DNA of 45,157 nt from a virus. The stretch covers positions 1 through 45,157 of IMG/VR virus record IMGVR_UViG_3300001683_000005; one strand, written 5' to 3'. Positions within the stretch are counted from its first letter, which is position 1. The number at the start of each line of letters is the position of its first letter. This document shows, in pieces, positions 1 to 45,157 of the stretch. The position numbers were made by a program, and so were the translations under genes. A model generated the notes under the pieces. The model ran no database searches, had not been told where the DNA came from, and worked only from the letters and a program-made list of their open reading frames with translations.

Positions 1-91
1 AGCCAAGGGAAGCCCGGTGTCGGACAACTTCTCGTAGTTTGATAAAACAATAAACTACGCAAGGAATCTGCCACCATGGCTATTACCAACT
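1..91. repeat. Terminal direct repeat, left copy (identical to 45067-45157); contig closes on itself, genome unit 45,066 bp
   Basis: Read directly: agccaagggaagcccggtgtcggacaacttctcg...ccaccatggctattaccaact is present at both ends, including the capsid leader hairpin and the first 16 nt of the capsid ORF. This fits circular assembly of a circularly permuted or terminally redundant genome. I cannot distinguish an assembly overlap from a physical terminal repeat. Confidence 0.95.
33..59 (+). promoter_or_regulatory. Leader hairpin upstream of the major capsid gene (possible RNA processing, stability or translation element)
   Basis: Perfect 8-bp inverted repeat cgtagttt (33-40) / aaactacg (52-59) with an 11-nt A-rich loop. 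It lies 17 nt upstream of the capsid ATG, inside a 155-nt leader (44987-45066 plus 1-75), the longest spacer in the late block. The function is inferred. Confidence 0.35.
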
Positions 92-1503
92 CACTGACTG
101 GTCTTGGTAATCTGACGGGCAACGCCGGAACCGCTGGTGCCGACTATAAGGTTTCCAACCTTTATAAGCAGGCATACAGCGACGCGGTGCGCCTCCAGAT
201 CCAGCAGTTCGATTCTCTGCTCTCCGACACTCTCCAACGCGAGAGCATCGAGGGCGAGGTCAAATCATTCGACCGACTCAACAAGAAGAGCGTTGACGAT
301 CTCCTCATCCGTACCCGCAGTGGCCTCTACGGCATCAAAAATGGTGTTGTTGCCACAGATACCGTCCTCGTTGCTGACGCAGTGTATGGGGCGAGCGACA
401 CCCAGCGCCGCATGATCGAGCCTCTGTGGTTCGAGTATGCGGAACTCTTCGACCCTCGCGACTCTCAGGGGCTGATGAAGGCCGTGCGGCCCGATTCTCA
501 ATACCTCCGCAACCTCGCAGCCATCTTCAACCGGAAGAAGGATCGGATCATCCTGGACGCGCTGTCCAAGAATGTGACCGTTCAGCAGCGAACTGGTTCC
601 GGCATAACCACGAACGCCACGGTGGCCTTCACCAACAATATGCAAAACACTGGCGAGGGAGCAACGGCTGCGGTTGGTGACTACAGTGGGGCTGGCTTCG
701 CAACCGAGGGCCTTGAGATTGGCTGCAACCTTGGCAAAGCGGTCGATGGTATCAGTCACCCAACCGTCACCACCCCCCTCTTCGAGGTGACGGCAACCGG
801 GGTGATCGACACAGGCACATGGAATGCCGCTGGTGTGGAATATGTTGGCACAACGGCCGCCAGCCAAGTTCTCGACGCAGCAACCCAGTACGACAGCAGC
901 ACCACCCCACCAACCGTCATCATCCCGGCCACTGGCAGTGGCACTGGCGCTGCTTCTGTTGGCACCGTGACTGAGTTGAACATCGAAAAACTCATCCGTG
1001 CCCGGCAGAAACTTGACGCCAACAACGCACTCATGCCCGGCACACGCTACATTTGCCTGTGTCACCCGAACAACTTCTACAGTCTCATGTCCGACTCGAC
1101 TGACACTCGCTTCACCAGCATTGATTTCAATGACGGCAAGCCGCTCACGAGCGGGGAGGCTTTCAAGTTCATGGGCTTTGAGTTCAGGATCACCAACGAA
1201 CTGCCGCAAGCCGTAACTGATAACACCTCCGCCTCCACCATCTCCGTCACCGACTTCGATGTTATCAATGAGGCCTCGCCTGTGGCCTGTGGCACCACAG
1301 CGGCCAATGTTCCGGTTCGCTGGGTGTACTTCTACACCGAGCAGTGCGGCATCTTCGGCATGAACCAGGAAATGCAGATCCGGTTCGACGAGATTCCCGA
1401 GCGTGGGTATGCCCTTCAAATGTGGCACCAGATCGGGATGAACGGGCTACGCATGGACGGTGACTGCATCGTGCGCGTGGCGTGCAAGGACGAGCCAGCA
1501 TAG
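76..1503 (+). CDS. Major capsid protein (475 aa) with an internal Thr/Gly/Ala-rich insertion of about 130 aa
   Basis: Long ORF directly after the scaffold-like gene. The portal-scaffold-capsid order matches T7 gp8-gp9-gp10. It is preceded by a long leader and followed, after the small structural genes, by a strong terminator. The 387-aa antisense ORF is a shadow. Confidence 0.8.
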   Translation: MAITNSLTGLGNLTGNAGTAGADYKVSNLYKQAYSDAVRLQIQQFDSLLSDTLQRESIEGEVKSFDRLNKKSVDDLLIRTRSGLYGIKNGVVATDTVLVADAVYGASDTQRRMIEPLWFEYAELFDPRDSQGLMKAVRPDSQYLRNLAAIFNRKKDRIILDALSKNVTVQQRTGSGITTNATVAFTNNMQNTGEGATAAVGDYSGAGFATEGLEIGCNLGKAVDGISHPTVTTPLFEVTATGVIDTGTWNAAGVEYVGTTAASQVLDAATQYDSSTTPPTVIIPATGSGTGAASVGTVTELNIEKLIRARQKLDANNALMPGTRYICLCHPNNFYSLMSDSTDTRFTSIDFNDGKPLTSGEAFKFMGFEFRITNELPQAVTDNTSASTISVTDFDVINEASPVACGTTAANVPVRWVYFYTEQCGIFGMNQEMQIRFDEIPERGYALQMWHQIGMNGLRMDGDCIVRVACKDEPA

Positions 1504-1522
1504 GTAAGAGTGGGGGTCTGCT

Positions 1523-1975
1523 GTGACAGGGAAGATGAACTCGATTAGCGCTGAGACACTGACTCGGTTTACCTCCGCGTCAGGGCTTGGTACATTCGGG
1601 ACCGTCTATGTAAACCTACTCACAGCAGGCCCCGCTAACGATGGCACGGTGACGACAGCCGTAGACGGCACGGAGTGGCTAATGGCCAGGGTGCCGATTG
1701 AAAGAACCGAGTGGACCGCCCCGGCGATTGTTCCCGGCAACGCGAACGCGGTGCAGATCACCAACGGCATCCCGCTAACCTGGGACGACATCACCTTCGA
1801 CAACCCTGGCGGCCCCACGGTCACCACTGCCACCGTGACGCACATTGGCGTGTGGAACACTTTCGACGGCACGGGCGACCTGCTCTACTGGGACGAGTTG
1901 GAGGTTGCTCGCACTGTGAACACTGGCGACACCTTCCAGTTGGGGGTGGGCAAACTAAGAATACGGGAGGACTGA
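1523..1975 (+). CDS. Small beta-rich virion protein, paralog 1 of 3 (150 aa); fibre/collar- or decoration-like
   Basis: GTG at 1523 (or ATG at 1535), 20 nt after the capsid stop. The pattern LLTAGPANDGT...NAVQITNGIPLTW...VTHIGVWNTFDGTGDLLYW...VNTGDTFQLGVGKLRI recalls a widespread small phage tail-fibre/collar-like family. This is recollection, not a search. Confidence 0.6.
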   Translation: MTGKMNSISAETLTRFTSASGLGTFGTVYVNLLTAGPANDGTVTTAVDGTEWLMARVPIERTEWTAPAIVPGNANAVQITNGIPLTWDDITFDNPGGPTVTTATVTHIGVWNTFDGTGDLLYWDELEVARTVNTGDTFQLGVGKLRIRED

Positions 1976-1979
1976 TGGA

Positions 1980-2553: not shown

Positions 2554-3357
2554 ATGAACAGTAACGCAGGGGCCAGTGACAAGGCCGAGATCGAAGTGAT
2601 AAGAGGCACGCCCCCTCCAGTGGGAATGGTTGGGGTGAGCGGCGAGTTCCACATCACCGCACACCACGAAAACGGCGAGGAGTTCTACCGCAACACAGTG
2701 AAGAACGCCACGACGACGGAGTTTCTTGTTGAGATGATAAACATCTTTGGTTCCGGTGCAAAAAACCTTGGTGCTGACGAGGCCGCTATCGGCGACAACG
2801 GAATCATCCAGGCCTTCGCATCTGCTGGCGGGTTAACTGGGGAAGCCACATACGGAACTGCCACCACTGGTGGAACCACCTCCTCCTATGAGTTCATGAT
2901 TGGTCTCGGAACTGCCACCACCCCGACACTCCATGCCACGACCAAGTCCTATACGGACATAGATGTGGGCGCTATAGCCACAACGGGCTTTGGCGAGGTG
3001 GCAGTCTCCGCTGCTGGCATTTCGGATTATACGAGGCAGCGGTTTGGTATCGCTACAGATGCTGGGATCAACCACCCCACCATAGTCGATCCAAATGTCA
3101 CAGTGACCAACCTCGGTGCTGGTGACCGGGCCACTTGGTTGCGTCCGGCCAGTGACACGGGCACGCTCGTGATTACTTGTGTGATGCTGGTGTTTACCAA
3201 CGACATAGATTCTGGCGATAACGCCGTGGGGGCTGGCACCACGGCTGGCTCGCTCAACAGGCTGGTGGCCTGTGCAGACCTTGGTGCCAGCGATGTGGAC
3301 CTGCAAGGTGGCGACACCATCAATGTTCGCTACACCTACCAACTGGCAGCCTCCTGA
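2554..3357 (+). CDS. Small beta-rich virion protein, paralog 3 of 3 (267 aa)
   Basis: ATG at 2554 preceded by AAGGAGGG. Thr/Gly/Ala-rich. The C-terminus ...LQGGDTINVRYTYQLAAS matches the ending shared with 1523-1975 and 1980-2543. Confidence 0.6.
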   Translation: MNSNAGASDKAEIEVIRGTPPPVGMVGVSGEFHITAHHENGEEFYRNTVKNATTTEFLVEMINIFGSGAKNLGADEAAIGDNGIIQAFASAGGLTGEATYGTATTGGTTSSYEFMIGLGTATTPTLHATTKSYTDIDVGAIATTGFGEVAVSAAGISDYTRQRFGIATDAGINHPTIVDPNVTVTNLGAGDRATWLRPASDTGTLVITCVMLVFTNDIDSGDNAVGAGTTAGSLNRLVACADLGASDVDLQGGDTINVRYTYQLAAS

Positions 3358-3458: not shown

Positions 3459-3501
3459 GGGGGATGGGGGGCCCGTGGAGTTCTCCATCCCCCTATTTTT
3501 T
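3459..3501 (+). terminator. Rho-independent terminator after the capsid/small-structural gene group
   Basis: Perfect 9-bp stem gggggatgg (3459-3467) / ccatccccc (3485-3493) with a 17-nt loop, followed by tatttttt (3494-3501). The position is analogous to T7 Tphi after gene 10. Confidence 0.75.
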
Positions 3502-3511
3502 GGAGGCACGA

Positions 3512-3877
3512 TTGCTAAAACCGTTTTCCGCCTCCACCCCGAAGCCCGTGGTTCCGGCAACCTTCCCGTCTGATCTGGATGTGAAGGACGGGATAATCGA
3601 CGGCACCTACACTCTTGCCTATCAAGACTCTGACGATAACTGGTATTCGATCACGGAATCCTATGATCGCTTCGATGATACTGAAGCAGGGTATATTAGT
3701 TTTCGTTGGCTCGACACGACCATCGTTGCTGAAATACTGCTGACTTCTAGAGCAGTTGTAAAGGCTAGCGGAGTACCTGAGTTGGCGAGGGAGAGCAAGG
3801 TTCATGGTCCTGGAACCTACGGATCAGGGGGTGTTGCCGAGGGTCTGACTAACGGCTTCACCCTGAGGACGGCCTAA
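3512..3877 (+). CDS. Hypothetical structural protein (about 121 aa; start uncertain)
   Basis: The ATG at 3464 given by the ORF track lies inside the terminator stem. The in-frame TTG at 3512 has GGAGG (3502-3506) 5 nt upstream. The stop overlaps the next start (TAATG). Confidence 0.5.
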   Translation: MLKPFSASTPKPVVPATFPSDLDVKDGIIDGTYTLAYQDSDDNWYSITESYDRFDDTEAGYISFRWLDTTIVAEILLTSRAVVKASGVPELARESKVHGPGTYGSGGVAEGLTNGFTLRTA

Positions 3878-6351
3878 TGACATTTTCCGTTGGCGACCGC
3901 ATTGTTGATTCAACCAGAACCGTAATCTCTGGCGTTCCCAATGACACTGGCTACACGCTAGGGGCATCCGAAGATGTTATCATCCTGTGTCACGCAGCGG
4001 CGGATGGATCTAATCGCTTCGACCCAGGCGACCCAGTTAGGATCTTCTACAGAGAAAAAACTATTCCGGAGGGTTCCTTTGCCCTGCTCTCAACCTCTAG
4101 CACCGGGATAGGTGGCCCTCCGGTCATTCCATACACCGTCGCCAGCACCGTCGGCGTCCCACACGATCTCGACAATAACAACCAAGTCTCAAATGCGGTT
4201 GACTCTGGCGGTCAGCCTGTGGAGCGGCGCTGCGGCTCCACTGCCGGGAAGTCATTCGTTGCGATTATGAAGGAATATGCTGGGAGCAACTCTCTCAACT
4301 TCAGCGGCAGTAGCCGTGACGATTTTACGGAAATGCAGGTGGCTATCAACTTCAGCGGGTGTGCGGCGGGAACTATTTGGCAGTTCCAGACCAGATGGAC
4401 GGAGAAGAGCAGTACAGTTGTCAACCTAGACTGTCTTTCAACAGTAACAATCCCTTCCGCGGCCACCACCTACTCTTCCACGGCCTCAGACACGGCCACC
4501 GCAAGTGACGCAGCCCTGGCCGAGCGGCCAGCAGTTACCAAGAGCGCAACTGCCGCTGACAGCGCAACCGCTTCGGACGCAGCGGTGGCCGAGCGGGCGG
4601 GCGTCATTTACGACAGGGCCGCCGCCGACAGCGCAACTGCCTCCGACGCAGCAGTGGCGGAACGCCCAGCCGCCACTAAAGAGACCACGGCTTCCGACAG
4701 CGCCACCGCAAGTGACGCAGCCTTGGCCGAGCGGCCAGCGGTCACCAAGGAGGCCACCGCCTCAGATAGCGCAACGGCCTCCGACGCAGCGGTGGCCGAG
4801 CGGCCAGCAGCCACTAAAGAGGCCACCGCCTCAGATAGCGCCACCTCTTCAGACTCGGTAGTAGCCGAACGCCCAGCCGCAACCAAGTCGGCCACGGCCT
4901 CAGACACGGCCACCGCAAGTGACGCGGCCCTGGCGGAGCGCCCAGCAGTTACCAAGAGCGCAGCGGCTTCGGACAGCGCCACAGCCTCCGACGCAGTAGT
5001 GGCGGACAAGGACTCAACCAAGAGCGCCACAGCCAGCGACAGCGCCACAGCCTCAGACACAGCCCTGGCGGAGCGGCCAGCCGCCACAAAGGCGGCAACG
5101 GCTTCGGACTCAGCCACTGCCTCGGACGCGGTGGCAACTGAGCGGCCTGCCGCAACCAAGAGCGCAACCGCCTCTGATAGCGCAACGGCAAGTGACGCCA
5201 CGGTGGCCACCAAGACCACGGGCGGAGCCGTCACGCATACCGAGAGCGTTGTGGTTCACACGGCCATCGACACGGGTTACCCGACGGTGGAAGTGAGCGT
5301 GGCGCTAGAGGTGGCTCTTATTGGCGCCACGGGTACGGAACTGCACGGGGAGGGCGTTGTCGCTGCGGTGACGGGGGTCACTGCCTACGGCCAGATCACG
5401 CAGGAGGTTCTTGCTCACATAACAGGCGGCACGGACATAGTGGTGGTGACGGACTTGTCGATAGGTGCGGGTGGTGCCGGGGACGCAGGCGCTGACGGTG
5501 CTGGTCCGATGGTTATCGTGGAGGTTGTGGTGCCCATGTCTGGGGGGTCATCCGGGGATGGCTCTGGATCTACTTGGGACGCTGAGGCTACTATAGACGG
5601 GAAGGGTAGCGCCCCCGCCCAGTTGAACTGGTTGTTGTTGGATGAGTTGGCTCTTATTGACGGGGCTGGCAGCGTGGCACCGGAGTTACTATCGGACGGA
5701 GAACTCGTGAGCGTAGAAGAGGTATGGAACACGGCATTGACCGTGCTAGGCGTGACGGTGGTCCAGACCACGGGCGAAGGCAGCCCGCAGGCCGACCTGT
5801 TGAATGCTGTGTGGGATGGTGGTTTCCGCGTGATGTTCTTAGCGGATCACGCCTGGAACGGCGCCAAGAGGACCAAGAAACTGGTGGAGTTTGTCTCCTC
5901 CCCCACAGGCAACAGGTGGAGCCACGCCTACTCACTGCCGGACGACTATGTGCGGGCCTTCAGGATCAACGGCAAGGAACTCCAGCCCGACTCTCATAAC
6001 TACGGCTCCAGCGGCCAACCGGGCGGCCACGACCTCTTTGAGATCGAGGTGGTGGAGAACGCCGATGGCCTCCTCAAGCGCTGTCTTCTTACTGACGAGG
6101 GGACTGTCATGTTGGAATATATGTTTGATGTGGGTAACGCCAACATTGACCTGTTATCACCGATGACGAAATGGGCAATGGGAGTGGCGCTGGCGGCCCA
6201 TGCCGCCCCCAACTTCGGCAAGTCTCAACAGGATATTGCGCTCCTTCAGGAGAGAGCAAACAAGGCGCTCATGGACGCCAAGGGGGTGGACGGGCAAGAG
6301 GGCACCCCGCAGATGTTCCAGACCACTCCAATACTTGACAGCAGGTACTAA
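3877..6351 (+). CDS. Adaptor / tail tubular protein A: a T7 gp11-like C-terminal domain of about 190 aa fused to a 640-aa N-terminal extension with tandem repeats (824 aa)
   Basis: The C-terminal part (...FRVMFLADHAWNGAKRTKKLV...YSLPDDYVRAFRING...MTKWAMGVALAAHAAPNFGKSQQDIALLQERANKALMDAKG) resembles my recollection of the gp11 layout. The gene is TAATG-coupled to the gp12-like gene. The N-terminal extension carries 11 x 23-aa repeats. Confidence 0.6.
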   Translation: MTFSVGDRIVDSTRTVISGVPNDTGYTLGASEDVIILCHAAADGSNRFDPGDPVRIFYREKTIPEGSFALLSTSSTGIGGPPVIPYTVASTVGVPHDLDNNNQVSNAVDSGGQPVERRCGSTAGKSFVAIMKEYAGSNSLNFSGSSRDDFTEMQVAINFSGCAAGTIWQFQTRWTEKSSTVVNLDCLSTVTIPSAATTYSSTASDTATASDAALAERPAVTKSATAADSATASDAAVAERAGVIYDRAAADSATASDAAVAERPAATKETTASDSATASDAALAERPAVTKEATASDSATASDAAVAERPAATKEATASDSATSSDSVVAERPAATKSATASDTATASDAALAERPAVTKSAAASDSATASDAVVADKDSTKSATASDSATASDTALAERPAATKAATASDSATASDAVATERPAATKSATASDSATASDATVATKTTGGAVTHTESVVVHTAIDTGYPTVEVSVALEVALIGATGTELHGEGVVAAVTGVTAYGQITQEVLAHITGGTDIVVVTDLSIGAGGAGDAGADGAGPMVIVEVVVPMSGGSSGDGSGSTWDAEATIDGKGSAPAQLNWLLLDELALIDGAGSVAPELLSDGELVSVEEVWNTALTVLGVTVVQTTGEGSPQADLLNAVWDGGFRVMFLADHAWNGAKRTKKLVEFVSSPTGNRWSHAYSLPDDYVRAFRINGKELQPDSHNYGSSGQPGGHDLFEIEVVENADGLLKRCLLTDEGTVMLEYMFDVGNANIDLLSPMTKWAMGVALAAHAAPNFGKSQQDIALLQERANKALMDAKGVDGQEGTPQMFQTTPILDSRY
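4477..5215 (+). repeat. In-frame tandem repeat, period 69 nt (23 aa), about 11 copies; consensus ATASDSATASDAAVAERPAATKS
   Basis: gagcggcca recurs at 69-nt spacing (e.g. 4522 and 4591). Eleven DSATASD/DTATASD units are visible in the translation. Alternative-frame and antisense ORFs in this region (4505-4861, 4608-5234) are repeat artefacts. Confidence 0.9.
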
Positions 6352-9026
6352 TGGCATGGCAGGTCCAGGAGAGTTTTAGTTCTGGGGAAATGAGTCCTCG
6401 CGCCTTCCCAAGGGCGAGCCTCCCCCAGGTGCAAAGCGGCGCCAAGACGATGCTCAATGCGTTCATAACAGCCTATGGCGCGGCCCAGAAGCGCTACGGC
6501 AGCCGTTTCGTCAAGTTCTCCGACTACCAGCCAGACGCTTCGGAAGTTGGGAATGATTTGTTGGGTGGCGAGGCAATAGCCATTCCCTACGAGACCACAA
6601 CGGGCGGCAAGTACATGGTGGTTCTTACCAAGGTGGCCGAGACTGACACCCTGGCCACTCTGAAGGTGTTGGAGGGCTACTCCTACATCGGGTTCGCTGA
6701 CGACCAAGCGCACGGCCCCATCCCGGCGGTCTCTCCAGCAGACAACACGAAGTACAATACCTTCTACAAGTTGAAGGCTGACGGCCCCCCGCCGCAGGAT
6801 TCCGAACTGCAAGACATTCAGTATTTCCAGATGGAGAATAAGTTGTTCCTGCTCCACCCGGCGCACCCCCCTCTGGTGCTGGAGCGGACGGTGATAGGAA
6901 CGGCTGAGACCTGGAAGTATGAGGTAGCGCCATTCATGGACACCTCCCCACGGGTTCATGTAGAGGGCAACACCATTGGCCTGTTAGTGAACACTGGGGA
7001 CCAGGAGATCACCGCCACCTCTGACTTGTTTGTGCCAGAGGACTTGGGTTCTTATTGGCGGGTGGGCGGAACCAAGCCTGGGAGTTCTTATTCCGAGTGG
7101 GTGAAGGTGACCGAGTACCTGTCGCCTACCATGGTTGGCTATAGCCATGTAGACTCAAACGGGCCTGCTAATGCGCCCGGAAACAACTCACTGGACTGGT
7201 GCGGGCCATTTGTAACCTCCGAGCCCTTGGACATCGTTTGGGCCACCACTCCTCCTGCCACCAATACCACGCAGGTAGTAACTTGGCCCACCACTCCCAC
7301 CACGGCCTTGATCGGCAGCCTCTTGGTTGCCGGGGATCTGTTTGCAATGGTCATTGCCATTGGTTCTGGAGACAGTGTCTCGGTCAGAGTGATAAGAGGC
7401 GGCGTCATCGGCGCTACGGTCAGTCACAAAGTAATGGGGACGAGAAAGGGGGTGACGAGGGACTACTATATGCGGTCCGCGCTTTCTTCGGATGGACAGA
7501 TTTGGTCTACAAAGCAGGCGTGGATCCCCACTGGCCACGAGACTCATTTTGACGGAGCCGACGGCACGGCCACCCGAGGGGGCACCGTGTTCATAGCGGA
7601 CGGGATTGTCGCAGTGACGGGTACGGAGTCTCAGGAGGGGTGGCGAGGATACGAAGTCGTCAATATCGACGGAAGTGGCTATGTTGGCCCCACCTTCAAT
7701 ATCGGGTTCGGCATGAGCGAGGGAGTGGGGTTCCCCTCCGTGGGCACCACCCACCAGGGCCGGGCAGTGCTGGGGGGCTTTATTGGCCCCACCGCTGGCT
7801 TTGGACTCTATTCCGAGAACCTCGTGGTGAGCCGGGTGGGCGAGCCGCTGGATTTCTCCCAAGGAAACGGGGACGCTGTCGATGGGTTCGGCCTCATAGC
7901 CCGTGACGGCGGCCCGATTCAATGGGTTGACTCCAACAGGGATCTCCTCGTCGGCTGTGATCGAGCAGAGTACAGGGTGAATGGCGTACCAATCTCCCCA
8001 ACCACGGCGGCTCTTATCAAGACATCCTCTTATGGAAGCAGCCGGGTCATGCCTGCTCGACTGGGAGCCGCCACTCTATATGTTGCCCGTGATGGCAGAA
8101 GCCTTTATATGGCCACCTACAGCGATATGCAGGACACCTACGATGTTGCTGATGTCACTGACTTGGCTGACCACCTGTTTATTAACGAGTCGATTGCGCA
8201 GTTGGTCGTCACCACCTCGCCGGACATTCTGGTCTGGGTAAGAACCAAGTCAGGAAAACTACGGGTGCTGAACTGGAAGCCTAGCACGAAAGTAATGGGG
8301 TGGAGCCGAGTGGAGACGGGTGCACCGGACGCGGTGGACTGGATCTCTTCCCGGCCCACCCAAACAGAAGGCACATCGCATGACAATGTCTGGGCTGTTA
8401 TCCAGAGGAAGTTCGGCGGTGGGCCTGTTGGAGGGGTTCAAGACAAGACATACCGAAGCATCGAGTCCTTTGGCGAGATATACACGATGGATCAGGAGAA
8501 CACCTACACCGGAACCGCCCTAACTGATGTGCTCACTGATGTTGGTGGTGCTCCAGACCGCTTGACCATTGGCGCCTTGAGGGGGCAGACGGTCCAGGTG
8601 GTAGCGGATGGGGTGTATTACGGGGATGTCACCATGGGCTTCACTGACGACACTGGGGCGGATGTGAGCAACCTGGGAATGGTCGCCATGCCCACCTCGC
8701 TGACTGTGGGGAGGGCGGTCTCTTATAAGATTGAGCCGTGTATCCAGGAGACCGATGTGGGGAGGGGGACCACCCACGGGCACCGCCGCAACATCAGCCG
8801 AATACTGGTGTATGTGCAGAACGCTCGTGGGTTGATTGTTGAGGGCTATGCCATGGACACCGTTCCTGGGGTGCCTGCTAGTGCAGTGGTCCCCACATTT
8901 GGTGGGTGGGTGAGCGTGCCTGTTATCGGGGACTATGGGAACCAGCCAGTCATAACGGTGACCCAGACAGCGCCCTACCAGATCGAGGTGTGCGCTGTGA
9001 ACATGGAGGTGAGTTATGGCGACTAA
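6351..9026 (+). CDS. Nozzle / tail tubular protein B (T7 gp12-like), 891 aa
   Basis: The N-terminus MAWQVQESFSSGEMSPRAFPRASLPQVQSGAKTMLNAFI fits the F..GE.SP...R.D... signature I recall for gp12-type nozzle proteins. Its size and its position after the adaptor also fit. Confidence 0.7.
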   Translation: MAWQVQESFSSGEMSPRAFPRASLPQVQSGAKTMLNAFITAYGAAQKRYGSRFVKFSDYQPDASEVGNDLLGGEAIAIPYETTTGGKYMVVLTKVAETDTLATLKVLEGYSYIGFADDQAHGPIPAVSPADNTKYNTFYKLKADGPPPQDSELQDIQYFQMENKLFLLHPAHPPLVLERTVIGTAETWKYEVAPFMDTSPRVHVEGNTIGLLVNTGDQEITATSDLFVPEDLGSYWRVGGTKPGSSYSEWVKVTEYLSPTMVGYSHVDSNGPANAPGNNSLDWCGPFVTSEPLDIVWATTPPATNTTQVVTWPTTPTTALIGSLLVAGDLFAMVIAIGSGDSVSVRVIRGGVIGATVSHKVMGTRKGVTRDYYMRSALSSDGQIWSTKQAWIPTGHETHFDGADGTATRGGTVFIADGIVAVTGTESQEGWRGYEVVNIDGSGYVGPTFNIGFGMSEGVGFPSVGTTHQGRAVLGGFIGPTAGFGLYSENLVVSRVGEPLDFSQGNGDAVDGFGLIARDGGPIQWVDSNRDLLVGCDRAEYRVNGVPISPTTAALIKTSSYGSSRVMPARLGAATLYVARDGRSLYMATYSDMQDTYDVADVTDLADHLFINESIAQLVVTTSPDILVWVRTKSGKLRVLNWKPSTKVMGWSRVETGAPDAVDWISSRPTQTEGTSHDNVWAVIQRKFGGGPVGGVQDKTYRSIESFGEIYTMDQENTYTGTALTDVLTDVGGAPDRLTIGALRGQTVQVVADGVYYGDVTMGFTDDTGADVSNLGMVAMPTSLTVGRAVSYKIEPCIQETDVGRGTTHGHRRNISRILVYVQNARGLIVEGYAMDTVPGVPASAVVPTFGGWVSVPVIGDYGNQPVITVTQTAPYQIEVCAVNMEVSYGD

Positions 9027-9910: not shown

Positions 9911-9913
9911 GAG

Positions 9914-34554: not shown

Positions 34555-34573
34555 GTGGGTCGGTCCCACTTTC

Positions 34574-37522: not shown

Positions 37523-37564
37523 GGTTGGCCTCCTTCTTCTTCAAGGTTGTCTGCCTCGTCAGGC

Positions 37565-37582
37565 CCACGGAAACACCCGTGG
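37565..37582 (-). other. Intergenic hairpin (6-bp stem ccacgg/ccgtgg, 6-nt loop) in the 89-nt spacer
   Basis: Read directly. There is no U-tract, so it is not a canonical terminator. Confidence 0.4.
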
Positions 37583-37611
37583 ACGACGACCCTCCAGTGG
37601 GGCCGTTTCGG

Positions 37612-38174: not shown

Positions 38175-38192
38175 CTCCTCTTATCGTTTCGG

Positions 38193-38654
38193 CTAGCAGA
38201 AGTGCGACTGGCAGTACGGCTCGTATCCAGGGAAGTCAGCGAGACAGGCCTCGTGAATCCTGGTGCGCTGCTCCTCGGTCAGTTCGTCGTCGAACAAACC
38301 GGACAGGTTGGAGAGGTGCTCCTGGGCGTTCCAGAAGGCGGCCCTCTGAGTGGGGGTATTCTTCGTCCTCTTATTGGCGTTGGCGAGCAGGCGCTCCACT
38401 TTGGTCAACTGGCTTCGCAGGCGCAGTGGCAGCGCCTTCTCCAGTTTCGTCCTCTCGTCGTCACTGTTCCCCAGCGACTCCTCCAGCAGGGCGATCAGTT
38501 CCAGCGTCTGCTCACGGTCCAGGTTCATGACCGGGTCTTCGAGGTCAGCGCCCACGGTCTCTGTCGTCCACATCGCCACCCGCACTCCAGGCCCTGAGTG
38601 CCGAAAGGTGATACTGATCTTTCCGCCAGTGCTTCCGTACAACATCTTGCTCAT
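38193..38654 (-). CDS. Hypothetical protein, 153 aa
   Basis: ATGA-coupled within the junction cassette. The stop is followed by the TAGCCGAAACG box. Confidence 0.5.
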   Translation of the reverse strand: MSKMLYGSTGGKISITFRHSGPGVRVAMWTTETVGADLEDPVMNLDREQTLELIALLEESLGNSDDERTKLEKALPLRLRSQLTKVERLLANANKRTKNTPTQRAAFWNAQEHLSNLSGLFDDELTEEQRTRIHEACLADFPGYEPYCQSHFC

Positions 38655-38875
38655 GAGCGCCCCCCTTCGCTGGTCAACTCGCCCTCCAGCCGGGCGATAG
38701 TTGCGGCCTGGTCACGCACGGTCTCCAGCAGTGCGACAAGGGTCTCTCGCTGAACACGAGCGTTTCCGAACCAGCCTCCCGGCCCTCCGACTGGCCTAAG
38801 GTCTGTGACGATCTGAGCCAGCACTGCTTCGGCATCCACCGCCCTTAGTTTCTCTCGCTTCTCGTTCTCGGTCAT
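38651..38875 (-). CDS. Hypothetical protein, 74 aa (first gene of the early block)
   Basis: ATG with GAAGGAGACG SD. The C-terminus ...LTSEGGRS is encoded by the junction cassette. Confidence 0.5.
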   Translation of the reverse strand: MTENEKREKLRAVDAEAVLAQIVTDLRPVGGPGGWFGNARVQRETLVALLETVRDQAATIARLEGELTSEGGRS

Positions 38876-38930
38876 GGTGCGTCTCCTTCGGTTCGGAGGG
38901 CGGCGGAAGTGCCACTCTCAACATACCTCT

Positions 38931-38959
38931 AGTAGAAGGGAGTGGATTCGTCCCGTCAA
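38931..38959 (-). promoter_or_regulatory. Candidate early leftward promoter (TTGACG-17-TCTACT)
   Basis: On the minus strand, TTGACG (38959-38954), a 17-nt spacer, then TCTACT (38936-38931), 56 nt upstream of the first early ATG. Confidence 0.3.
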
Positions 38960-39185
38960 CCTATGTGGGCAAAGTTCTTACTGCCTTCTTTACCAAACAC
39001 CTACAGAGGGGCAGGAGAGCGGTGGTACTGTGATAATAAATAGTGGAGAATCTTCAGGGAGGCGGGCTTCCAGTAGTACGGTGCTCGCCGGGTCGGGACG
39101 GGACCAGGGCTTCGGGAGCAGGCTGGCAGGTCAGCAGGCAAGGACAGGGTTGTGTCGTCCGGGCCTCCACTGTCTCCCGCTCGTG

Positions 39186-39283
39186 GGTCGCTGGTCGGTG
39201 CGCCGGATAAGAGGTCGGGGCGTGCTGGTCGGTGGTCAGGTCGGGCTGGTCGGGTGGTGCTGGGTCGGTGGATCAGTGGTCGG
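39186..39283 (+). repeat. Cluster of at least 6 short degenerate direct repeats, core TGGTCGG (iteron-like)
   Basis: CTGGTCGGTG is exact at 39191-39200 and 39225-39234. Variants occur at 39213, 39246, 39262 and 39277. The block is strongly G/T-rich on the top strand. Confidence 0.7.
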
Positions 39284-39292
39284 AGGAGGGCT

Positions 39293-39309
39293 GGATAAGA
39301 GCGACCTCG
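39293..39309 (+). repeat. 17-nt box GGATAAGAGCGACCTCG (copy 1; partner at 39389-39405 with 1 mismatch; shorter GGATAAGAG at 39205-39213)
   Basis: Read directly. The box contains the genome-wide over-represented ATAAGAG core. Confidence 0.8.
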
Positions 39310-39388
39310 TTCCCCCCCCGTGCGTGTCGTGCGGGCGGGCGTGCGTGCGGGTGGATCGGAGGGGGCGGGGGCCGGATCCTGGGGGCTC

Positions 39389-39405
39389 GGATAAGACCGA
39401 CCTCG
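39389..39405 (+). repeat. 17-nt box GGATAAGACCGACCTCG (copy 2)
   Basis: Matches 39293-39309 at 16 of 17 positions, 96 bp downstream. Confidence 0.8.
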
Positions 39406-39865
39406 ACCCGGGCGGAGGGGGGGGCGGGCCCCCGGCGGGGCCGTTTCGACGGCAGGTATTATATCCCCTTTGCCGAAATCTGGGCGTGTGTTACTGGGTA
39501 GTGCTCTGAGGGGGTGGTAGTGGCCGAGGAGGGCTGTGGGCGATTGCCCCGCTTGCCGCGTTGTTGCCCCCCTCGACCTTGAGGTTCGGAGAAGTTTGCG
39601 TCAGGTACTTATCCCGGGCTGGTACATAAGGTATCTCGTGCAGGTGCTCCAGTATCCCTCGTCTAACTTTCTCGGCAGTTCTTATGCAGGCTTTGGAGGC
39701 ACGAGCGAAGTCTTCCTTGCAAACGCTTCTCTGGTGGACCTTGCCCAGTAAAAAGGAAACTTCCTCTAGAGTGAGCAGGGAGGGATCGTACTGAACGCCT
39801 AAATAGGAGGGGGGAGGTTTTTTTCTTGGGATTTCTTCCCCTTTGGTCTAGATGGGCCATCAGTT

Positions 39866-39884
39866 CAGCCCACTAGATTGGTAG
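39866..39884 (+). repeat. Imperfect direct repeat CAGCCCACT(A/G)..TTGGT.AG (partner at 40019-40038)
   Basis: cagcccactagattggtag versus cagcccactgagttggtgag, about 150 bp apart, upstream of the first late gene. Nearby, gggtctag/ggtctag is also duplicated (39845, 39973). Confidence 0.5.
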
Positions 39885-40153
39885 ATAGGAGCACTAATCA
39901 AAACCCCCCCTACCCCCCCTTCGATTTGAAGGAGGTTGTGCGCGTGGTAGGAACCTGACCTAGTAAGCCCGCTGGGTCTAGTTCCAATCGCACTGGTAGG
40001 GGGGAGAAGAAGAAAAGCCAGCCCACTGAGTTGGTGAGTAGTCGCTCTCGTCGTCGAAGACCCCAAACTTGACGACCAGCCATTGGACTCGACATTCAGG
40101 AGTCCGCTGGCTGAACGCTGGACAGCCTACTCCGGGCCTCTTATGGTGTCAAT

Positions 40154-40750: not shown

Positions 40751-42197
40751 CGACGACGAGCGTGACCGCCTCATGGGTGAACTGGCCCTGGAAGAGGAAC
40801 TGGTAAGAAGGCTCGACGGCAACCCCCTTGCTCAGTTGAAGCCCAATCCTCGCCAGTGGGACTTTCTGAACTCAGCCACCCACGAGACCATGTTCAGCGG
40901 CCTCAATCAGGCTGGTAAGAGCACGGCCCTCTGCCTGAAGGCTGCCTACCACCTCACGGGGATCTACCCCAAGGAATACACGGGTCCAAGGTTTGACGGC
41001 CCGATCAACTCAGCCATTGGTGGTGAGACTGCCCAGTCCACCCGAGACCTCTTATGTGACCGCTTGCTGGGCACTTTAGGTGAGCGTGGCACGGGCTACA
41101 TTCCGAGTGAGTGCGTGGACGAGGCGAAGATAACAAGGCTCACTGGCGGCATTCCCAACCAGATCGACTTCTTCCAGGTCAAGCACCACGATAAGAACGG
41201 GGCCTTTGACGGGTGGAGTAAGTGCTTTGTGTTCTCTTATTCGAGTGGCTGGCAGCGCCTTCAGGGCTACACGCTCCACTGGATAGGGTGTGACGAGGAA
41301 CCGAAGTTCGACATTTACGACGAGTTCAGTGCGAGGCTCAATGCAACCAACGGCTACATGGACATGGCCCTGACTCCGCTCCAGGGCGAGACTGCCCTCT
41401 ATCTGCTCTTTGAGGAGGATAAGAGTGGCGTGCGGGTCATGATTAACTACGACATCATGGACACCGACCACATGACGGACGACGACCGCACCCGTCTGAT
41501 TGGCAAGTATGAGAACCACCCACTGGCTGAGGCCCGTCTCCATGGCCGTCCAGTAAGAGGGGAGGGGCTTGTCTACACCACCCCTGACCACATATTGGAG
41601 ATAGAGGACTTTCTTATTCCGGAGCACTGGAAAGAGATCATTGGCCTGGACTTCCCCCACGGCACGGGCGTGTTTGCTGCGGTGAAGATGGTCTACAACC
41701 CTGACGACGATGTGCTCTATTTAGTGAGTGAGTACAAGGACGAGGGCAGGGAGAGCGTGGTCTATGCTGACCGGGTGCGCCTCATGGGGGGTGGCACTTG
41801 CCCGGTGGCTTGGCCCCACGACGGTGCCCGCACATTCACCGACGGCTCCACCATAGCGAAGAAGTATAAGGGGTACGGGCTTGCAATGTTGCCCGGTCCC
41901 GCTCATTTTGTTACGCTAGAGGGTAAGAAGACTTTCGCCATCATGAGTGCGGTTGAGGAGATGGTGGACCGAATGCAGACGGGCAGGTTCCGTGTGTTCA
42001 AGTCATCGTGTCATAAGTGGTTCCGGGAAAAGCGCCGCTACAAGCACAACGCTGGCAGGATTGCGACAAAACAGGACGACCACCTCATAGACGCCATGCA
42101 CAAGGCGATCATGATGTTGAGGGAGGCTAGGCCCTCCAATGAAACAAAAGAAATGATAGCCCCGCGAATGCCGGAGCATGACTTCTTCGGTGGATAA
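40740..42197 (+). CDS. terL: Large terminase subunit (about 485 aa; start TTG 40740, or GTG 40701 / ATG 40773)
   Basis: Walker A SGLNQAGKST, Walker B-like LHWIGCDEEP, and nuclease-domain acidic motifs IIGLDFPHG and KQDDHLIDAMHKA. The TTG at 40740 has GAAGGGGGG 7 nt upstream. Confidence 0.8.
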   Translation: MAISDDERDRLMGELALEEELVRRLDGNPLAQLKPNPRQWDFLNSATHETMFSGLNQAGKSTALCLKAAYHLTGIYPKEYTGPRFDGPINSAIGGETAQSTRDLLCDRLLGTLGERGTGYIPSECVDEAKITRLTGGIPNQIDFFQVKHHDKNGAFDGWSKCFVFSYSSGWQRLQGYTLHWIGCDEEPKFDIYDEFSARLNATNGYMDMALTPLQGETALYLLFEEDKSGVRVMINYDIMDTDHMTDDDRTRLIGKYENHPLAEARLHGRPVRGEGLVYTTPDHILEIEDFLIPEHWKEIIGLDFPHGTGVFAAVKMVYNPDDDVLYLVSEYKDEGRESVVYADRVRLMGGGTCPVAWPHDGARTFTDGSTIAKKYKGYGLAMLPGPAHFVTLEGKKTFAIMSAVEEMVDRMQTGRFRVFKSSCHKWFREKRRYKHNAGRIATKQDDHLIDAMHKAIMMLREARPSNETKEMIAPRMPEHDFFGG

Positions 42198-42208
42198 GAG
42201 GAGGCCCA

Positions 42209-43879
42209 GTGTCTAAGGATCTTGATGAACTGATTGACCGCCTGGAGTACATGAAGGGCTTGAGGTACAACGACGAGCAGACTTGGCAAGAGATTAGCGA
42301 CCTCATGATGCCTTTCCGTGGGGATATCACCACCACCAAGAGCACTGGTAGCCGGAGGGTTTCCCCGGTATTTGACAGCACGGCCATGCAGGCTGCTGAC
42401 ACCTTCGTCAACTTTATCAAGGGCGCAGTGATCCCCGGCAACCTGGACTGGCTCAAACTGGAGGCATCGGCCCCATTCACTGACGACCTGAAGGTGCAAG
42501 AGGTTCTGGACCTCACCTCCACCAAGATCCTGGAGGCCCTCTCGGGCTCCAACTTCTATATGCAGGCCACGGCCTTCCTGCGGGACTTTGCCGTGCTTGG
42601 TAATGGGACCATGTTCGTGAACGAGCGTCCCCCCCAACTGAACCGCTCTGGCTCCACCTTTGGTGGCCTCAGTTTCGAGGCTGTCCCGGTGAGCAGAATG
42701 TGGTGGTCTACGGGAGCGGAGCAGGCCCCGACTATCATGGCGAGGGTGTTTGAACTACCAGCCCTTGACGCTTTCAAGTTCTTTGATGGCAAGCCGGGCG
42801 CTGCCTGCCTGGAGATGCTTGAGAGAGATCGAATGGGCACGGTGGAGTATTTCCACTTCTGTTACGAGAACGAGGACAAGATTCCTGGCGGCATTTCGTC
42901 GGCCATGGAGAAGCCTTGGGTGAGCCAGTTCCTGTCCCTGGGGGCCAGACCGGAGATCATTCGAGAGGGTGGATTTGAGTTCTGCCCCTACATAATCAGC
43001 CGCTGGATGGTGGTTGACGGCGAGACCTATGGGCGAGGAAGAGGGCACTTGGCCCGGCCAGACACAAAGGGCGTGAATGAGTTGCGTAGGCAGATCCTCA
43101 TTGCTGCTGGTAAAGATCTAAATCCCCCATTGATGGTGGAGCATGACACGATGGTCACCCTCGACTTCTCGCCCAACGGGATCATGGTGACCCGTCCCCC
43201 CATAAAAATGAACCCCACCTACCTGAAGAGTGATTCCAAGTACGAGGTGGCTGACGGCATTGCGAGGCTAGACCGTGACCAGATTGGTCGAGCCTTCATG
43301 AGCGAGGTGTTTGACGAGCCTGAGACCCAGCCCCGTAGTGCTGAGGAGAGCAGGCTCCGCCAGAGCAGGATGCTCCAGAAAATGGCAAGCCCAGCGGAAG
43401 TGATGAGCCATGAGTTCCTCACCCCTCTTATTGACGCCGTGGTGGAGTTAATGAGCAGGAATGGCGCCCTACCGGAACTGCAAGAGATTGTGGAGGGGGG
43501 CGTGGATGTGAACATCCACTACCAGAGTCCCGTCTTCACTGCGCAGAAAGCGAGCGGCGGGAGCAAGGTTCAGGCCTTCCTGGAGAGACGACTCATGTTA
43601 TTCCAGGCCACCCAAGACCCCGCTTGGCTGGATGATATAGACTACGACGCTATAACGGCCTACGATGCAAGGACCGCCGATGTGCCAGCGGAGATATTCC
43701 GCACACAGGAAGAGGTGGCAATGCGGAGGGAGGCCCGTGCGCAGGCACAGGCCCAACAAATGATGATGGAACAAGCACAACAAGCGGCACAGATTGCTGC
43801 CGCACAAGGAGGAGGCCCAGAGGGGATGGCGCCAGAGCCAGCCCTTCCAGGCATGACGGAAGGACCACCGATTGGGTAA
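42209..43879 (+). CDS. Portal (head-to-tail connector) protein, 556 aa
   Basis: GTG start with GAGGAGG SD. Located between terL and the scaffold gene. Its size and the Gln/Ala-rich C-terminal tail (AQAQAQQMMMEQAQQAAQIAAAQ) fit a podovirus connector. Confidence 0.75.
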   Translation: MSKDLDELIDRLEYMKGLRYNDEQTWQEISDLMMPFRGDITTTKSTGSRRVSPVFDSTAMQAADTFVNFIKGAVIPGNLDWLKLEASAPFTDDLKVQEVLDLTSTKILEALSGSNFYMQATAFLRDFAVLGNGTMFVNERPPQLNRSGSTFGGLSFEAVPVSRMWWSTGAEQAPTIMARVFELPALDAFKFFDGKPGAACLEMLERDRMGTVEYFHFCYENEDKIPGGISSAMEKPWVSQFLSLGARPEIIREGGFEFCPYIISRWMVVDGETYGRGRGHLARPDTKGVNELRRQILIAAGKDLNPPLMVEHDTMVTLDFSPNGIMVTRPPIKMNPTYLKSDSKYEVADGIARLDRDQIGRAFMSEVFDEPETQPRSAEESRLRQSRMLQKMASPAEVMSHEFLTPLIDAVVELMSRNGALPELQEIVEGGVDVNIHYQSPVFTAQKASGGSKVQAFLERRLMLFQATQDPAWLDDIDYDAITAYDARTADVPAEIFRTQEEVAMRREARAQAQAQQMMMEQAQQAAQIAAAQGGGPEGMAPEPALPGMTEGPPIG

Positions 43880-44177
43880 CAACGAGGAGATGAACAAGGT
43901 TAATGACTCCATGTACACCGTGGACGATAAGACCATGCTTATTGATGTGTGTCTTTTATTCGAGAGCGATCTCGGTAAGAAGGTGCTGGGGTACATGGAA
44001 ACGCTGAGTGGGGCCATGCACTCCCTTGAGCCGGAAGAGGTGGAGGCCCGTGAAACTGGTAAGAGTGTGCCCATCTGCCCGATAGGAATGAGCAAGCGGA
44101 ATGGCCAGAGGGCCTTCTACTGGCGTATTATTGCAATGATTGGTGAGGGTGACCGACTCCGAGGGGGGATTGAATGA
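43872..44177 (+). CDS. Hypothetical head-module protein, about 101 aa (start uncertain: TTG 43872, ATG 43890 or 43911)
   Basis: ORF between the portal and scaffold genes. ATGA-coupled to the scaffold gene. Confidence 0.45.
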   Translation: MGNNEEMNKVNDSMYTVDDKTMLIDVCLLFESDLGKKVLGYMETLSGAMHSLEPEEVEARETGKSVPICPIGMSKRNGQRAFYWRIIAMIGEGDRLRGGIE

Positions 44178-44986
44178 GCGACCTGAATGAAACTTTACCA
44201 GACGACTTCGAGGGCCGGGCAGGCTTGGCGGAGAAGTTTGGCACCGTGGCAGACCTAGCAACCTCTTATCAAGCCCTCCAGGGGCAGATGGGCGGAAGTG
44301 CCAGGGTTCCAGGCGAGGACGCCTCCCCTGAGGATTGGCGCTCCTTCTACACCAAGATGGGCGCCCCGGTCAGCGTTGAGGGCTATGGGGTGCCAGAGGA
44401 CATGGACGCTGGAACCAAGTCCCAGTTGGTTGGCCTCAGACAGCAGGCCCTGGATTCCGGGCTCACCTCAAAGCAGTGGGATAGCCTGATTGGAACGGTG
44501 GCCACTGGTGCGTCCTCCCAGATAGAGAGCCACCGAGCCCTCCTCGAAGCCACCAAGGAGGAGTGGGCCACCCAGTCCAGGAAGAAGTACGGCGACCAGT
44601 TCGATTCAAAACTGGCCATGGCGGAACGAACCTATCGTCACATTGTTGGCGACGACGCAGAGGTGGGCGCTCTCCTGGAGAGCACTGGGCTCAATAAGAA
44701 CCCTAGATTACTGGACCTATTTATGAAGGTTGGAGAACAAATGGCAGACGATACGATTCCAGCCGACGCTGGTGGAGCCCCTCAGGGCAATGCGAACTCT
44801 CTGGCCATGCGGGCCAGGAAACTACTCAAGGAGGGTGCAGTTAACAATCCGCGCCACCCTGACTATGAGGAAGCCTACCAGGAGTACATGAGAATCCAGT
44901 CCAATCTCATGGAGCAGGGCTTTGCCGGGATAACAGATCCCCGCCTCAAAGAAACCCAGGAGTTCCCCCTTTACGAAGATGCGTAA
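44174..44986 (+). CDS. Scaffolding protein candidate, 270 aa
   Basis: Charged protein with predicted helices, located between the portal and major capsid genes (the T7 gp9 position). Confidence 0.6.
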   Translation: MSDLNETLPDDFEGRAGLAEKFGTVADLATSYQALQGQMGGSARVPGEDASPEDWRSFYTKMGAPVSVEGYGVPEDMDAGTKSQLVGLRQQALDSGLTSKQWDSLIGTVATGASSQIESHRALLEATKEEWATQSRKKYGDQFDSKLAMAERTYRHIVGDDAEVGALLESTGLNKNPRLLDLFMKVGEQMADDTIPADAGGAPQGNANSLAMRARKLLKEGAVNNPRHPDYEEAYQEYMRIQSNLMEQGFAGITDPRLKETQEFPLYEDA

Positions 44987-45066
44987 GACCTGATAGAGTG
45001 AACCTGTTCGATAACCCTAAGGGCCGGGCTGACCGCAGGAAAGACTGCCGAAGGGGCTCGCGTGTG

Positions 45067-45157
45067 AGCCAAGGGAAGCCCGGTGTCGGACAACTTCTCG
45101 TAGTTTGATAAAACAATAAACTACGCAAGGAATCTGCCACCATGGCTATTACCAACT
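45067..45157. repeat. Terminal direct repeat, right copy (identical to 1-91)
   Basis: Same 91 nt as bases 1-91, compared base by base. Confidence 0.95.

Follow-up and report, generated by a model that had tools for sequence, protein, structure and literature searches.

Described systems and the CTCTTAT heptamer

Short words that are kept dense in phage genomes by selection are a known kind of genomic signal. The heptamer CTCTTAT (ATAAGAG on the opposite strand) in the genome of an uncultured marine podovirus-like phage, IMG/VR record IMGVR_UViG_3300001683_000005, is a signal of this kind, although the motif is new and the rules that govern its orientation and position are unusual. The stretch analysed here, called the window below, is the whole of this record (positions 1 to 45,157). 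It is a complete circular assembly with a G+C content of 58%, in which the first 91 bases recur at the end (1-91 and 45067-45157) to leave 45,066 unique bp. The 91-bp terminal overlap holds no copy of the heptamer.

The closest described systems each resemble the window in part. Chi-enriched phages, which include the lambdoid phage LLS, P1 and the Pseudomonas phage MD8, have as their top word a short asymmetric sequence present about once per 1-2 kb (PMC12315714). As in the window, codon usage offers no explanation for the excess in these phages, near-variants are frequent, and the excess is found in only some related phages. However, their Chi sites are clustered near an end and 87-100% of them lie on one strand (20 of 23 in LLS and 32 of 32 in MD8; PMC12315714), whereas the copies in the window are divided 67:33 and are scattered without a gradient. 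In addition, Chi-enriched phages do not carry recombination genes, whereas the window encodes an ERF annealase and a YqaJ exonuclease. The Chi words GCTGGTGG and GCTGGCGC (PMC12315714) are G-rich, in contrast to the AT-rich heptamer of the window, whose G+C content is 58%.

The stoperators of cluster A mycobacteriophages have a motif that co-varies with the repressor, and are mostly found in one orientation relative to transcription (PMC6550527; see also PMC9283540). The window is similar in having dozens of asymmetric sites spread genome-wide and a lineage-specific motif, which in the case of stoperators serves one phage protein. Stoperators are 13-14 bp long and are located mostly between genes or at gene ends. 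In contrast, the core in the window is only 7-10 bp, 35 of the 43 copies reside inside genes, and their orientation relative to transcription is 23:20, such that the heptamer departs from stoperators in both orientation and position.

DNA uptake sequences of the Neisseriaceae and Pasteurellaceae occur about once per kb in both orientations, lie within genes in the cheapest frames, and are maintained in density rather than in position. They are 9-12 bp long with extended flanks, reside in bacterial chromosomes, are driven by uptake bias, and typically form inverted close pairs that serve as terminators. The heptamer shares the density of about 1 per kb, the presence of both orientations, and the location inside genes in all usable frames. 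Unlike uptake sequences, its close pairs are direct and it lacks a 9-12 bp core with a flanking consensus.

Over-representation of the heptamer independent of coding

An exact search of the whole window, from which all heptamer coordinates below are taken, reveals 43 copies of the heptamer or about one per kb. These comprise 29 CTCTTAT on the top strand, designated (+) below, and 14 ATAAGAG on the top strand, designated (-). The totals are the same as those counted by eye in the original prediction, which also placed all 14 ATAAGAG copies correctly. Four of its CTCTTAT positions were off by 1-10 bases, and the true positions are 9155 (not 9165), 36327 (not 36337), 41234 (not 41233), and 43425 (not 43435).

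In 100 dinucleotide-preserving shuffles the heptamer occurs 2.48 ± 1.57 times with a maximum of 7, and Markov models of orders 0, 1, and 2 predict 3.1, 2.6, and 4.3 copies. The proposal that the heptamer is over-represented more than 10-fold therefore holds against these expectations, and the excess amounts to 10-17-fold. Models of orders 3, 4, and 5 predict 8.5, 24, and 40 copies, which are high because these models are trained on the sub-words of the heptamer itself. When the 43 sites are masked, the same models predict 5.1, 9.8, and 8.6, and thus the higher-order comparison that had been proposed as a check also yields only 5-10 copies versus 43. Among all 7-mers ATAAGAG is the top-ranked word, with a z-score of about 18 (17.6 in a codon-aware scan).

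The excess is not a consequence of the encoded proteins. Inside genes 36 copies are counted by these analyses, compared to 3.9 ± 1.9 (maximum 12) in 1000 synonymous-codon shuffles within genes and 3.0 expected upon permutation of whole codons within genes. Codon-preserving shuffles had been named as the decisive test of whether the signal lies in the DNA or in the peptide, and they leave an excess of about 9-fold inside genes. Given the proteins, synonymous codons permit the heptamer at 110 positions, and 36 of these are occupied. The excess is real and strong, and because it survives codon-preserving shuffles, the density of the heptamer reflects selection on the DNA itself that is independent of coding.

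Sequence characteristics of the motif

The TCTTA core is present in 119 copies versus 45-62 expected. A 5' C is found at 65 of the 119 cores and a 3' T at 73, and the two occur together at 43 cores compared to 39.9 if they were independent. The base that follows the heptamer is C, T, or G, and is A in only one of the 43 copies (8720), while the two bases upstream lean towards G and C. The resulting consensus is GCCTCTTATC, or GATAAGAGGC on the other strand, which can be written as (G)(C)[C>T]TCTTA[T>C][C/T/G]. No information for a flanking consensus or a longer hidden element is evident beyond positions -1 and +1/+2 within ±50 bp, and so the heptamer is not part of a longer repeat. The flanking preferences are additive and matrix-like, and in this respect the motif behaves like a sequence recognised by a protein.

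The one-off variants that are enriched are TTCTTAT (15 versus 3.0), CTCTTAC/GTAAGAG (14 versus 3.9), ATCTTAT, and CTGTTAT, whereas the others are at expectation. Thus, of the variants initially listed as frequent, TTCTTAT and CTCTTAC/GTAAGAG retain this status, whereas CTAAGAG (5 versus 3.5) and TTAAGAG (3 versus 2.9) are not enriched.

Spacing, strand, and paired copies

The spacing of the heptamer is near Poisson (coefficient of variation of gaps 1.21), with 0-7 copies per 3 kb and no gradient. The strand bias of about 2:1 described earlier is correct as a count (29:14, or 67:33), but it is weak (P = 0.03) and vanishes for the wider family TCTTAT (41:32). No runs or domains of orientation are apparent in the window, since 16 runs were counted by hand versus about 20 expected. 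A polar or domain-structured orientation was rejected on the basis of these two results.

Three direct pairs have a spacing of 15-16 bp, compared to 0.046 expected (P of about 2e-5 uncorrected, or about 6e-4 when the choice of distance bin is allowed for). The first pair, at 8011-8017 and 8027-8033 (both +), is 16 bp apart and is kept in relatives, and the second, at 15428-15434 and 15443-15449 (both +), is 15 bp apart. The third is formed by copies at 26505-26511 and 26521-26527 (both -), again 16 bp apart, wherein the TAA of the first copy is the stop codon of the open reading frame (ORF) 26227-26508 and the second copy is at the start of ORF 26517-26867. No member of a direct pair is among the sites lost in relatives that cover them. 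Inverted pairs within 80 bp are absent, whereas about 3 would be expected from the number of sites and the genome length. The program Tandem Repeats Finder reveals no tandem array in the window, and the three pairs are isolated.

A motif-free island extends from 29100 to 35200 and includes the YqaJ exonuclease gene, two XRE genes, small ORFs, and the VWA gene. Within this island the TCTTA core occurs 1.15 times per kb, compared to roughly 1.0-1.4 per kb expected, whereas its density is 2.7-3.5 per kb in most other segments and 1.8 per kb in the first 9 kb. A recently acquired module was considered for this region and rejected, given that neither its G+C content nor its tetranucleotide composition is distinct and that a test of potential sites gives P = 0.17. 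The presence of this 6-kb block of accessory early genes without copies fits a property of the phage lineage rather than a property of all DNA in that host.

Codon phases and gene context

A total of 35 of the 43 copies are inside genes and the other eight are at gene boundaries or between genes. Relative to transcription, 23 copies read CTCTTAT on the sense strand and 20 read ATAAGAG, which reveals no bias. Sense CTCTTAT is present in phases 0, 1, and 2 in 3, 10, and 9 copies, where it encodes Leu-Leu, x-Leu-Ile, and x-Ser-Tyr, respectively. Sense ATAAGAG occupies the same phases 7, 7, and 0 times and encodes Ile-Arg (ATA-AGA) or x-Lys-Ser/Arg. Its absence from phase 2 within ORFs is due to the TAA that would then be in frame. 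At five further copies (9907, 25887, 26199, 26505, and 42194), this TAA is the true stop codon of a gene, and three of the five are followed by GG to give a GAGG sequence ahead of the start of the next gene. Rare codons (ATA-AGA and TTA) and five TAA stops serve to make the heptamer. These findings support the initial observations of mixed codon phases, every usable phase being occupied, and of copies that double as a stop codon and Shine-Dalgarno sequence among a majority that are intragenic. The claim that the six copies of the leftward block have ATAAGAG on their coding strand without exception is also confirmed.

The gene-free stretch upstream of terS

The density of the motif peaks in a gene-free, G-rich stretch at 38876-40153, between the leftward early block and terS, with 2.35 heptamers and 4.7 TCTTA cores per kb. 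The three boxes that had been proposed for the non-coding control region were located here, with the sequence GGATAAGA at 39205, 39293, and 39389. Box 1 (GGATAAGAG) carries the heptamer at 39207-39213 (-) and box 2 (GGATAAGAGCGACCTCG) carries it at 39295-39301 (-). Box 3 (GGATAAGACCGACCTCG), at 39389-39405 (+), is a one-off variant and a 17-nt repeat of box 2. The boxes have in common the longer repeat GGATAAGA(G/C)CGACCTCG, and a close relative also has three boxes in this stretch with a different spacing. An additional copy at 40138-40144 (+) is 9 nt upstream of the terS start codon and is kept in all nine relatives (9/9) aligned there.

The same stretch has other characteristics. Three GCTGGTCGG repeats are located at 39190-39253, poly-G and poly-C runs are present, and the top strand is G-rich. 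Relatives for which called genes were listed likewise have about 1 kb without a called gene upstream of terS. The gene-free stretch could be a pac site, a replication origin, or a non-coding RNA. Directly before the heptamer at 40138, the sequence CCTACTCCGG at 40126-40135 corresponds to the 3' half of the phiKMV nick consensus. A nick site of the phiKMV type was judged to be a chance match, because the sequence is present as a single copy without the upstream CGAC half.

Distribution among related phages

The heptamer is present about once per kb in every member of the clade that was fetched, as defined by terL identity of at least 91% or by identity down to 72% for the tail protein of ORF 6351-9026. 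These members come from different samples and were built by different assemblers. Most copies are common to the clade by descent, a few have been lost or gained, and it seems from these alignments that density rather than position is kept. Relatives with a 72% identical terL, whose G+C content is 51%, have no excess of the heptamer. Where sites in their terL and portal genes can be aligned, these relatives carry words that are one base away (CTGTTAT, CTCATAT, and CTCTAAT). Relatives at this distance use different codons for the same amino acids. The comparison with related phages that had been advised thus reveals an excess in close relatives and none at 72% terL identity. As judged from these genomes, the heptamer is specific to one clade.

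Searches for unrelated phages with the same heptamer, made by scanning with the MoxR and ERF proteins, gave clade members only. A scan of viral contigs for CTCTTAT-N8/9-CTCTTAT gave, among the matches listed, clade members along with chance hits in AT-rich or low-complexity sequence.

A codon-aware scan of the phage family uncovered another lineage with its own codon-independent word, CTAGCA(G), which is present 46 times versus 11 expected. In its lineage CTAGCA likewise forms a cluster in the non-coding DNA that precedes terS, and a gene for a C5 cytosine methyltransferase (PF00145, E = 1.3e-34) is located between terS and terL. In one representative (L009, the same as L057), this gene spans 1873-2730, seems to be split by a frameshift, and resides in a genome enriched in CTAGCA/GCTAGC. 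The tetramer CTAG overall is likewise above expectation in this lineage (91 versus 55). Several lineages of the family, including the window, have a second word above codon shuffles, which is AACTCA/TGAGTT. It occurs 41 times versus 15 across the whole window and is also found in L005, L008, and L009, and AACTCAA is present 8-9 times versus 1.2-1.6 in L008 and L009. An unrelated viral contig of 14 kb (L132, IMGVR_UViG_3300017648_000055) contains CCTTGAG and CCTCAAG 29 and 23 times versus 1.4 expected.

Other apparent cases of a dispersed word were set aside. The excess in L110 is due to coding repeats, and that in L065, L066, and L071 is due to a local iteron array next to a primase-helicase gene. 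In L066 the array, at 3930-4300, consists of about 20 tandem iterons of sequence GGGCCGATAA(G/T)RT with a period of 15-17 bp, and similar arrays are found in L065 and L071. The iterons adjoin genes for a D5/PriCT-type primase-helicase, an SSB, and an ERCC4 nuclease, and the array is probably a replication origin. These iterons resemble the pairs in the window in being direct repeats with a period of 15-17 bp, and half of the units contain GATAAGA, which matches the extended motif of the window. However, the iterons are confined to a single local array, with no enrichment in the rest of those genomes, whereas such an array is absent from the window and no primase-helicase was found in it. The window and the iteron phages have only terS and structural proteins in common, and a link between the iterons and the heptamer is suggestive only. 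The idea that the heptamer itself functions as origin iterons was rejected, as the window has no local array and neither an initiator nor a primase was found in it.

A proposed model of dispersed protein-binding sites

We tentatively favour the interpretation that the heptamer represents a dispersed set of putative binding sites for a lineage-specific DNA-binding protein. Among the readings considered, it is the one that best fits the additive degeneracy of the motif, the direct pairs at 15-16 bp, the density peak in non-coding DNA, the lack of polarity, and the clade specificity. The original prediction left several roles undecided, and the evidence now leans to a protein-binding site. A polar element resembling Chi or KOPS has little support, because the strand bias is weak and there are no runs or domains of orientation.

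In this model, CTCTTAT would form the central part of a recognition site that is asymmetric and about 9-10 bp long, and that selection on DNA holds at about one copy per kb in the clade. The reader would be a DNA-binding protein of the phage lineage, for which the candidates are the two XRE proteins and the early proteins that have no annotation (ORFs 38651-38875, 38193-38654, 37612-38124, 37118-37522, 36238-36795, and 27335-27865). Many weak sites, a few tandem pairs, and the cluster upstream of terS might let this protein mark or coat the phage genome. Possible purposes include genome-wide silencing of the stoperator kind, discrimination between phage and host DNA at packaging, and protection. 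The binding of a protein, the phage origin of this protein, and the effect of its binding are all features that we infer. It is possible, but doubtful, that the heptamer functions more specifically as a genomic 'barcode' written into the phage's own genes, with rare codons and stops used where needed. Such a barcode would tell phage DNA from that of the host or of competitors for packaging, protection, or global silencing, and its word would change between sister lineages, with CTCTTAT used here and CTAGCA in another.

Several observations somewhat dampen our enthusiasm for a dispersed set of binding sites. Most copies stand alone, and a search at every site for a weak partner at ±15-16 bp did not find one, which led us to reject the idea that all sites are paired. 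Positional conservation is only slightly above neutral (e.g. 5 versus 3.2 and 20 versus 17.7), and so individual positions do not look critical. The motif-free island is marginally significant (P = 0.07 for the gap and 0.17 for potential sites). The clade and its motif-less relatives also differ in G+C content (58% versus 51%), and thus a change of host could explain the heptamer equally well. Furthermore, the heptamer core is short for a specific binder, and the only recognisable DNA binders in the window are the two small XRE proteins and terS. XRE proteins usually bind palindromes. The terS protein is unlikely to determine specificity, because both lineages that have the heptamer and lineages that lack it conserve the terS helix-turn-helix stretch.

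Alternative explanations

A signal that is read by the host and has accumulated in the phage is rather unlikely in our view, but it is the leading alternative and accounts for several of the findings. This could be the Chi sequence of the host, at which RecBCD or AddAB switches from degradation to recombination, or a 'self' signal of the uptake type. Phages that accumulate Chi are documented, with frequent near-variants and an excess that codon usage does not cause (PMC12315714), and the window likewise has the heptamer as its most exceptional word, about once per kb. Its positions turn over while its density is kept, and it comes with a shift in G+C content from 51% to 58% that suggests a change of host. 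Moreover, both orientations would be required throughout if the genome is circularly permuted. However, Chi-rich phages, with 87-100% of their sites on one strand and near one end, lack a recombination module of their own, whereas the 29:14 copies here are scattered in a phage that has both an ERF annealase and a YqaJ exonuclease. The direct pairs at 15-16 bp and the non-coding cluster play no part in a Chi model, and the AT-rich composition of the heptamer also counts against it because known Chi sequences are G-rich.

It is improbable that an enzyme which modifies or processes DNA targets the heptamer, for example a methyltransferase, a different base modifier, or a nickase like those acting on the virion DNA of T5-like and phiKMV-like phages. 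Type III, Type IIG, and BREX enzymes typically target short asymmetric words of 6-7 bases with Y/R degeneracy, and a C5 cytosine methyltransferase is indeed encoded in the sister lineage that is rich in CTAGCA. However, restriction and BREX targets are depleted in phages rather than enriched 10-fold, and no candidate enzyme is evident in the window. Scans of its ORFs with Pfam and PHROGs, together with motif greps of all frames, revealed no methyltransferase, glycosylase, transferase, or nickase, where the Pfam and PHROGs scans covered all but about nine small ORFs of the structural region (including 1523-1975, 1980-2543, 3464-3877, 9016-9459, 9443-9910, and 43872-44177). Catalytic motifs of modification enzymes were likewise found in no real ORF of the window. 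Known nick consensi occur between a few times and roughly a dozen times in a genome, frequently on a single strand, and not 43 times on both, and the phiKMV-like decamer at 40126 is single and without the upstream CGAC. We also consider it very improbable that the heptamer has no function and is generated by biased mutation, repair of the very-short-patch type, or gene conversion that turns near-cognate words into the heptamer. Positional conservation barely above neutral is consistent with this process, as is the fact that TTCTTAT and CTCTTAC, the variants with the highest enrichment, each differ from the heptamer by a transition. Repair-driven over-representation of words is known in bacteria, but such excesses are below about 2-fold compared to 10-17-fold here. 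The remaining transition neighbours (CCCTTAT, CTTTTAT, CTCCTAT, CTCTCAT, and CTCTTGT) are neither depleted nor enriched as conversion would predict, the 15-16 bp pairs and the non-coding cluster are left unexplained, and no candidate enzyme for it was found encoded in the window. Finally, it is hardly credible that the excess is an artefact or a by-product of coding that arises from a repeated peptide, codon-pair bias, Shine-Dalgarno sequences, or the Nextera/Tn5 adapter (CTGTCTCTTATACACATCT, which contains CTCTTAT). Literature matches to the word are mostly Nextera adapter primers, and the five copies that overlap stop codons include three that supply GAGG. However, sequences shuffled by codon-preserving or codon-permuting methods lose the excess, which rules out a peptide or codon cause, and all usable phases and both orientations occur. 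Adapter contamination is also ruled out, since the adapter requires an A after the heptamer that is absent in 42 of the 43 copies, and the longest adapter-like match is 10 nt and occurs once. Furthermore, the copies are in frame in conserved genes and recur in independent JGI, ENA, Logan, and NCBI assemblies.

Locations of the remaining copies

The other copies are found in most parts of the genome. Near the left end, the copy at 2599-2605 (-) reads ATA AGA G (Ile-Arg) in ORF 2554-3357 and is conserved in 6 relatives. The tail protein gene at 3877-6351 carries two copies, 5315-5321 (+) and 5651-5657 (+), that both read gCT CTT ATt (Ala-Leu-Ile), and the tail protein gene at 6351-9026 carries ATA AGA G at 7392-7398 (-). 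The sole copy with an A next is located at 8720-8726 (+) and is followed by another at 9155-9161 (+). ORF 9443-9910 terminates at the TAA within 9907-9913 (-), the next ATG being that at 9914, and 28 bp away the copy at 9935-9941 (-) reads ATA AGA G in ORF 9914-11776.

The gene for the 1614-amino-acid internal virion protein carries the copy at 14320-14326 (+). The copies at 16353-16359 (+) and 17499-17505 (+) both read CTC TTA T, the former with its rare TTA codon, and the copy at 16633-16639 (+) is located between them. The gene for the 2343-amino-acid virion protein carries the copy at 20819-20825 (+). Further copies reading CTCTTAT on the top strand are found at 21993-21999 (+), 22587-22593 (+), 24252-24258 (+), 25250-25256 (+), and 25802-25808 (+), and those at 22129-22135 (-) and 23824-23830 (-) read ATA AGA G in the sense direction. 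At 25887-25893 (-) the TAA is the stop codon of the 2343-amino-acid gene, with the next ATG at 25894. The TAA at 26199-26205 (-) ends ORF 25894-26202 and is followed by GG to form TAAGAGG.

In the leftward block, the copy at 28670-28676 (+) is located in the ERF gene, whose coding strand has it as ATAAGAG. Other copies are located in ORF 28818-29081 (28858-28864, +), in the gene for the MoxR-like ATPase (35217-35223, +), in ORF 36238-36795 (36327-36333, +), and in ORF 38193-38654 (38368-38374, +), all of which are leftward, and one copy is intergenic (38178-38184, +).

Three copies reside in terL. In relatives with 72% identity, the copy at 41049-41055 (+) corresponds to CTGTTAT and that at 41234-41240 (+) to CTCATAT, which is one base off at the aligned position, and the third is at 41419-41425 (-). 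The TAA of the copy at 42194-42200 (-) is the terL stop codon, and is followed by GAGGAGG upstream of the start of the portal gene. Within the portal gene, the copy at 43425-43431 (+) aligns in a 72% relative with CTCTAAT, again one base off. The last copy, at 44263-44269 (+), is in ORF 44174-44986.

Genome organisation and other features

The rightward genes code for terS, terL, a T7-type portal, a scaffold/protease-like protein, the major capsid protein, tail tube proteins, and two giant internal virion proteins of 1614 and 2343 amino acids, and include small ORFs of the lysis region. The leftward early block (27.3-38.9 kb) carries genes for the ERF annealase (PF04404, E = 1.3e-18), the YqaJ exonuclease (PF09588, E = 1.1e-13), two XRE proteins, a VWA protein, and a MoxR-like ATPase, in addition to unannotated ORFs. 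In the window no tRNA genes, primase, polymerase, or replication initiator were found, and no integrase or partition genes were seen.

A megablast search of the GenBank phage collection with the window gave no nucleotide match, and the closest portals have at most 28% identity. Near-identical genomes of 44.2-45.7 kb have been assembled independently several times, with a record from a Mediterranean metagenome and data from JGI, ENA, and Logan among the sources, and samples with contigs of 44-46 kb are Mediterranean, Tara, or JGI samples. The terL family comprises at least 534 metagenomic loci. A scan of a genome collection with terL gave a single match of 48%, on a 7.6-kb contig of an Anaerolineae metagenome-assembled genome. 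The MoxR homologues are metagenomic without exception.

The early block has two additional features. A type II hammerhead ribozyme (Rfam RF02276) is located at 37545-37613 (-) between two leftward early ORFs, and this full-length match has a score of 55.3 bits versus a gathering threshold of 37 (E = 8e-9). The genes for the VWA protein and bpMoxR (PF20030) are adjacent at 33030-36142 (-), mostly inside the motif-free island. According to its Pfam description, the bpMoxR family is part of MoxR-vWA-beta-propeller ternary systems. Codon usage in the window is odd for DNA with 58% G+C, in that 39% of Arg codons are AGG or AGA and 22% of Ile codons are ATA.

Implications

One third of the positions at which the proteins permit the heptamer carry it, which indicates selection as strong as that for Chi or uptake sequences. 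This occurs in an uncultured podovirus that is globally distributed in marine environments. If the reader is a phage protein, then the heptamer would allow a phage to label its own genome in a manner unlike that of stoperators with respect to the size of the sites and the rules of their position and orientation. If the reader instead belongs to the host, then the heptamer would be a handle for host assignment and, for an uncultured marine bacterium, a candidate Chi or other self signal.

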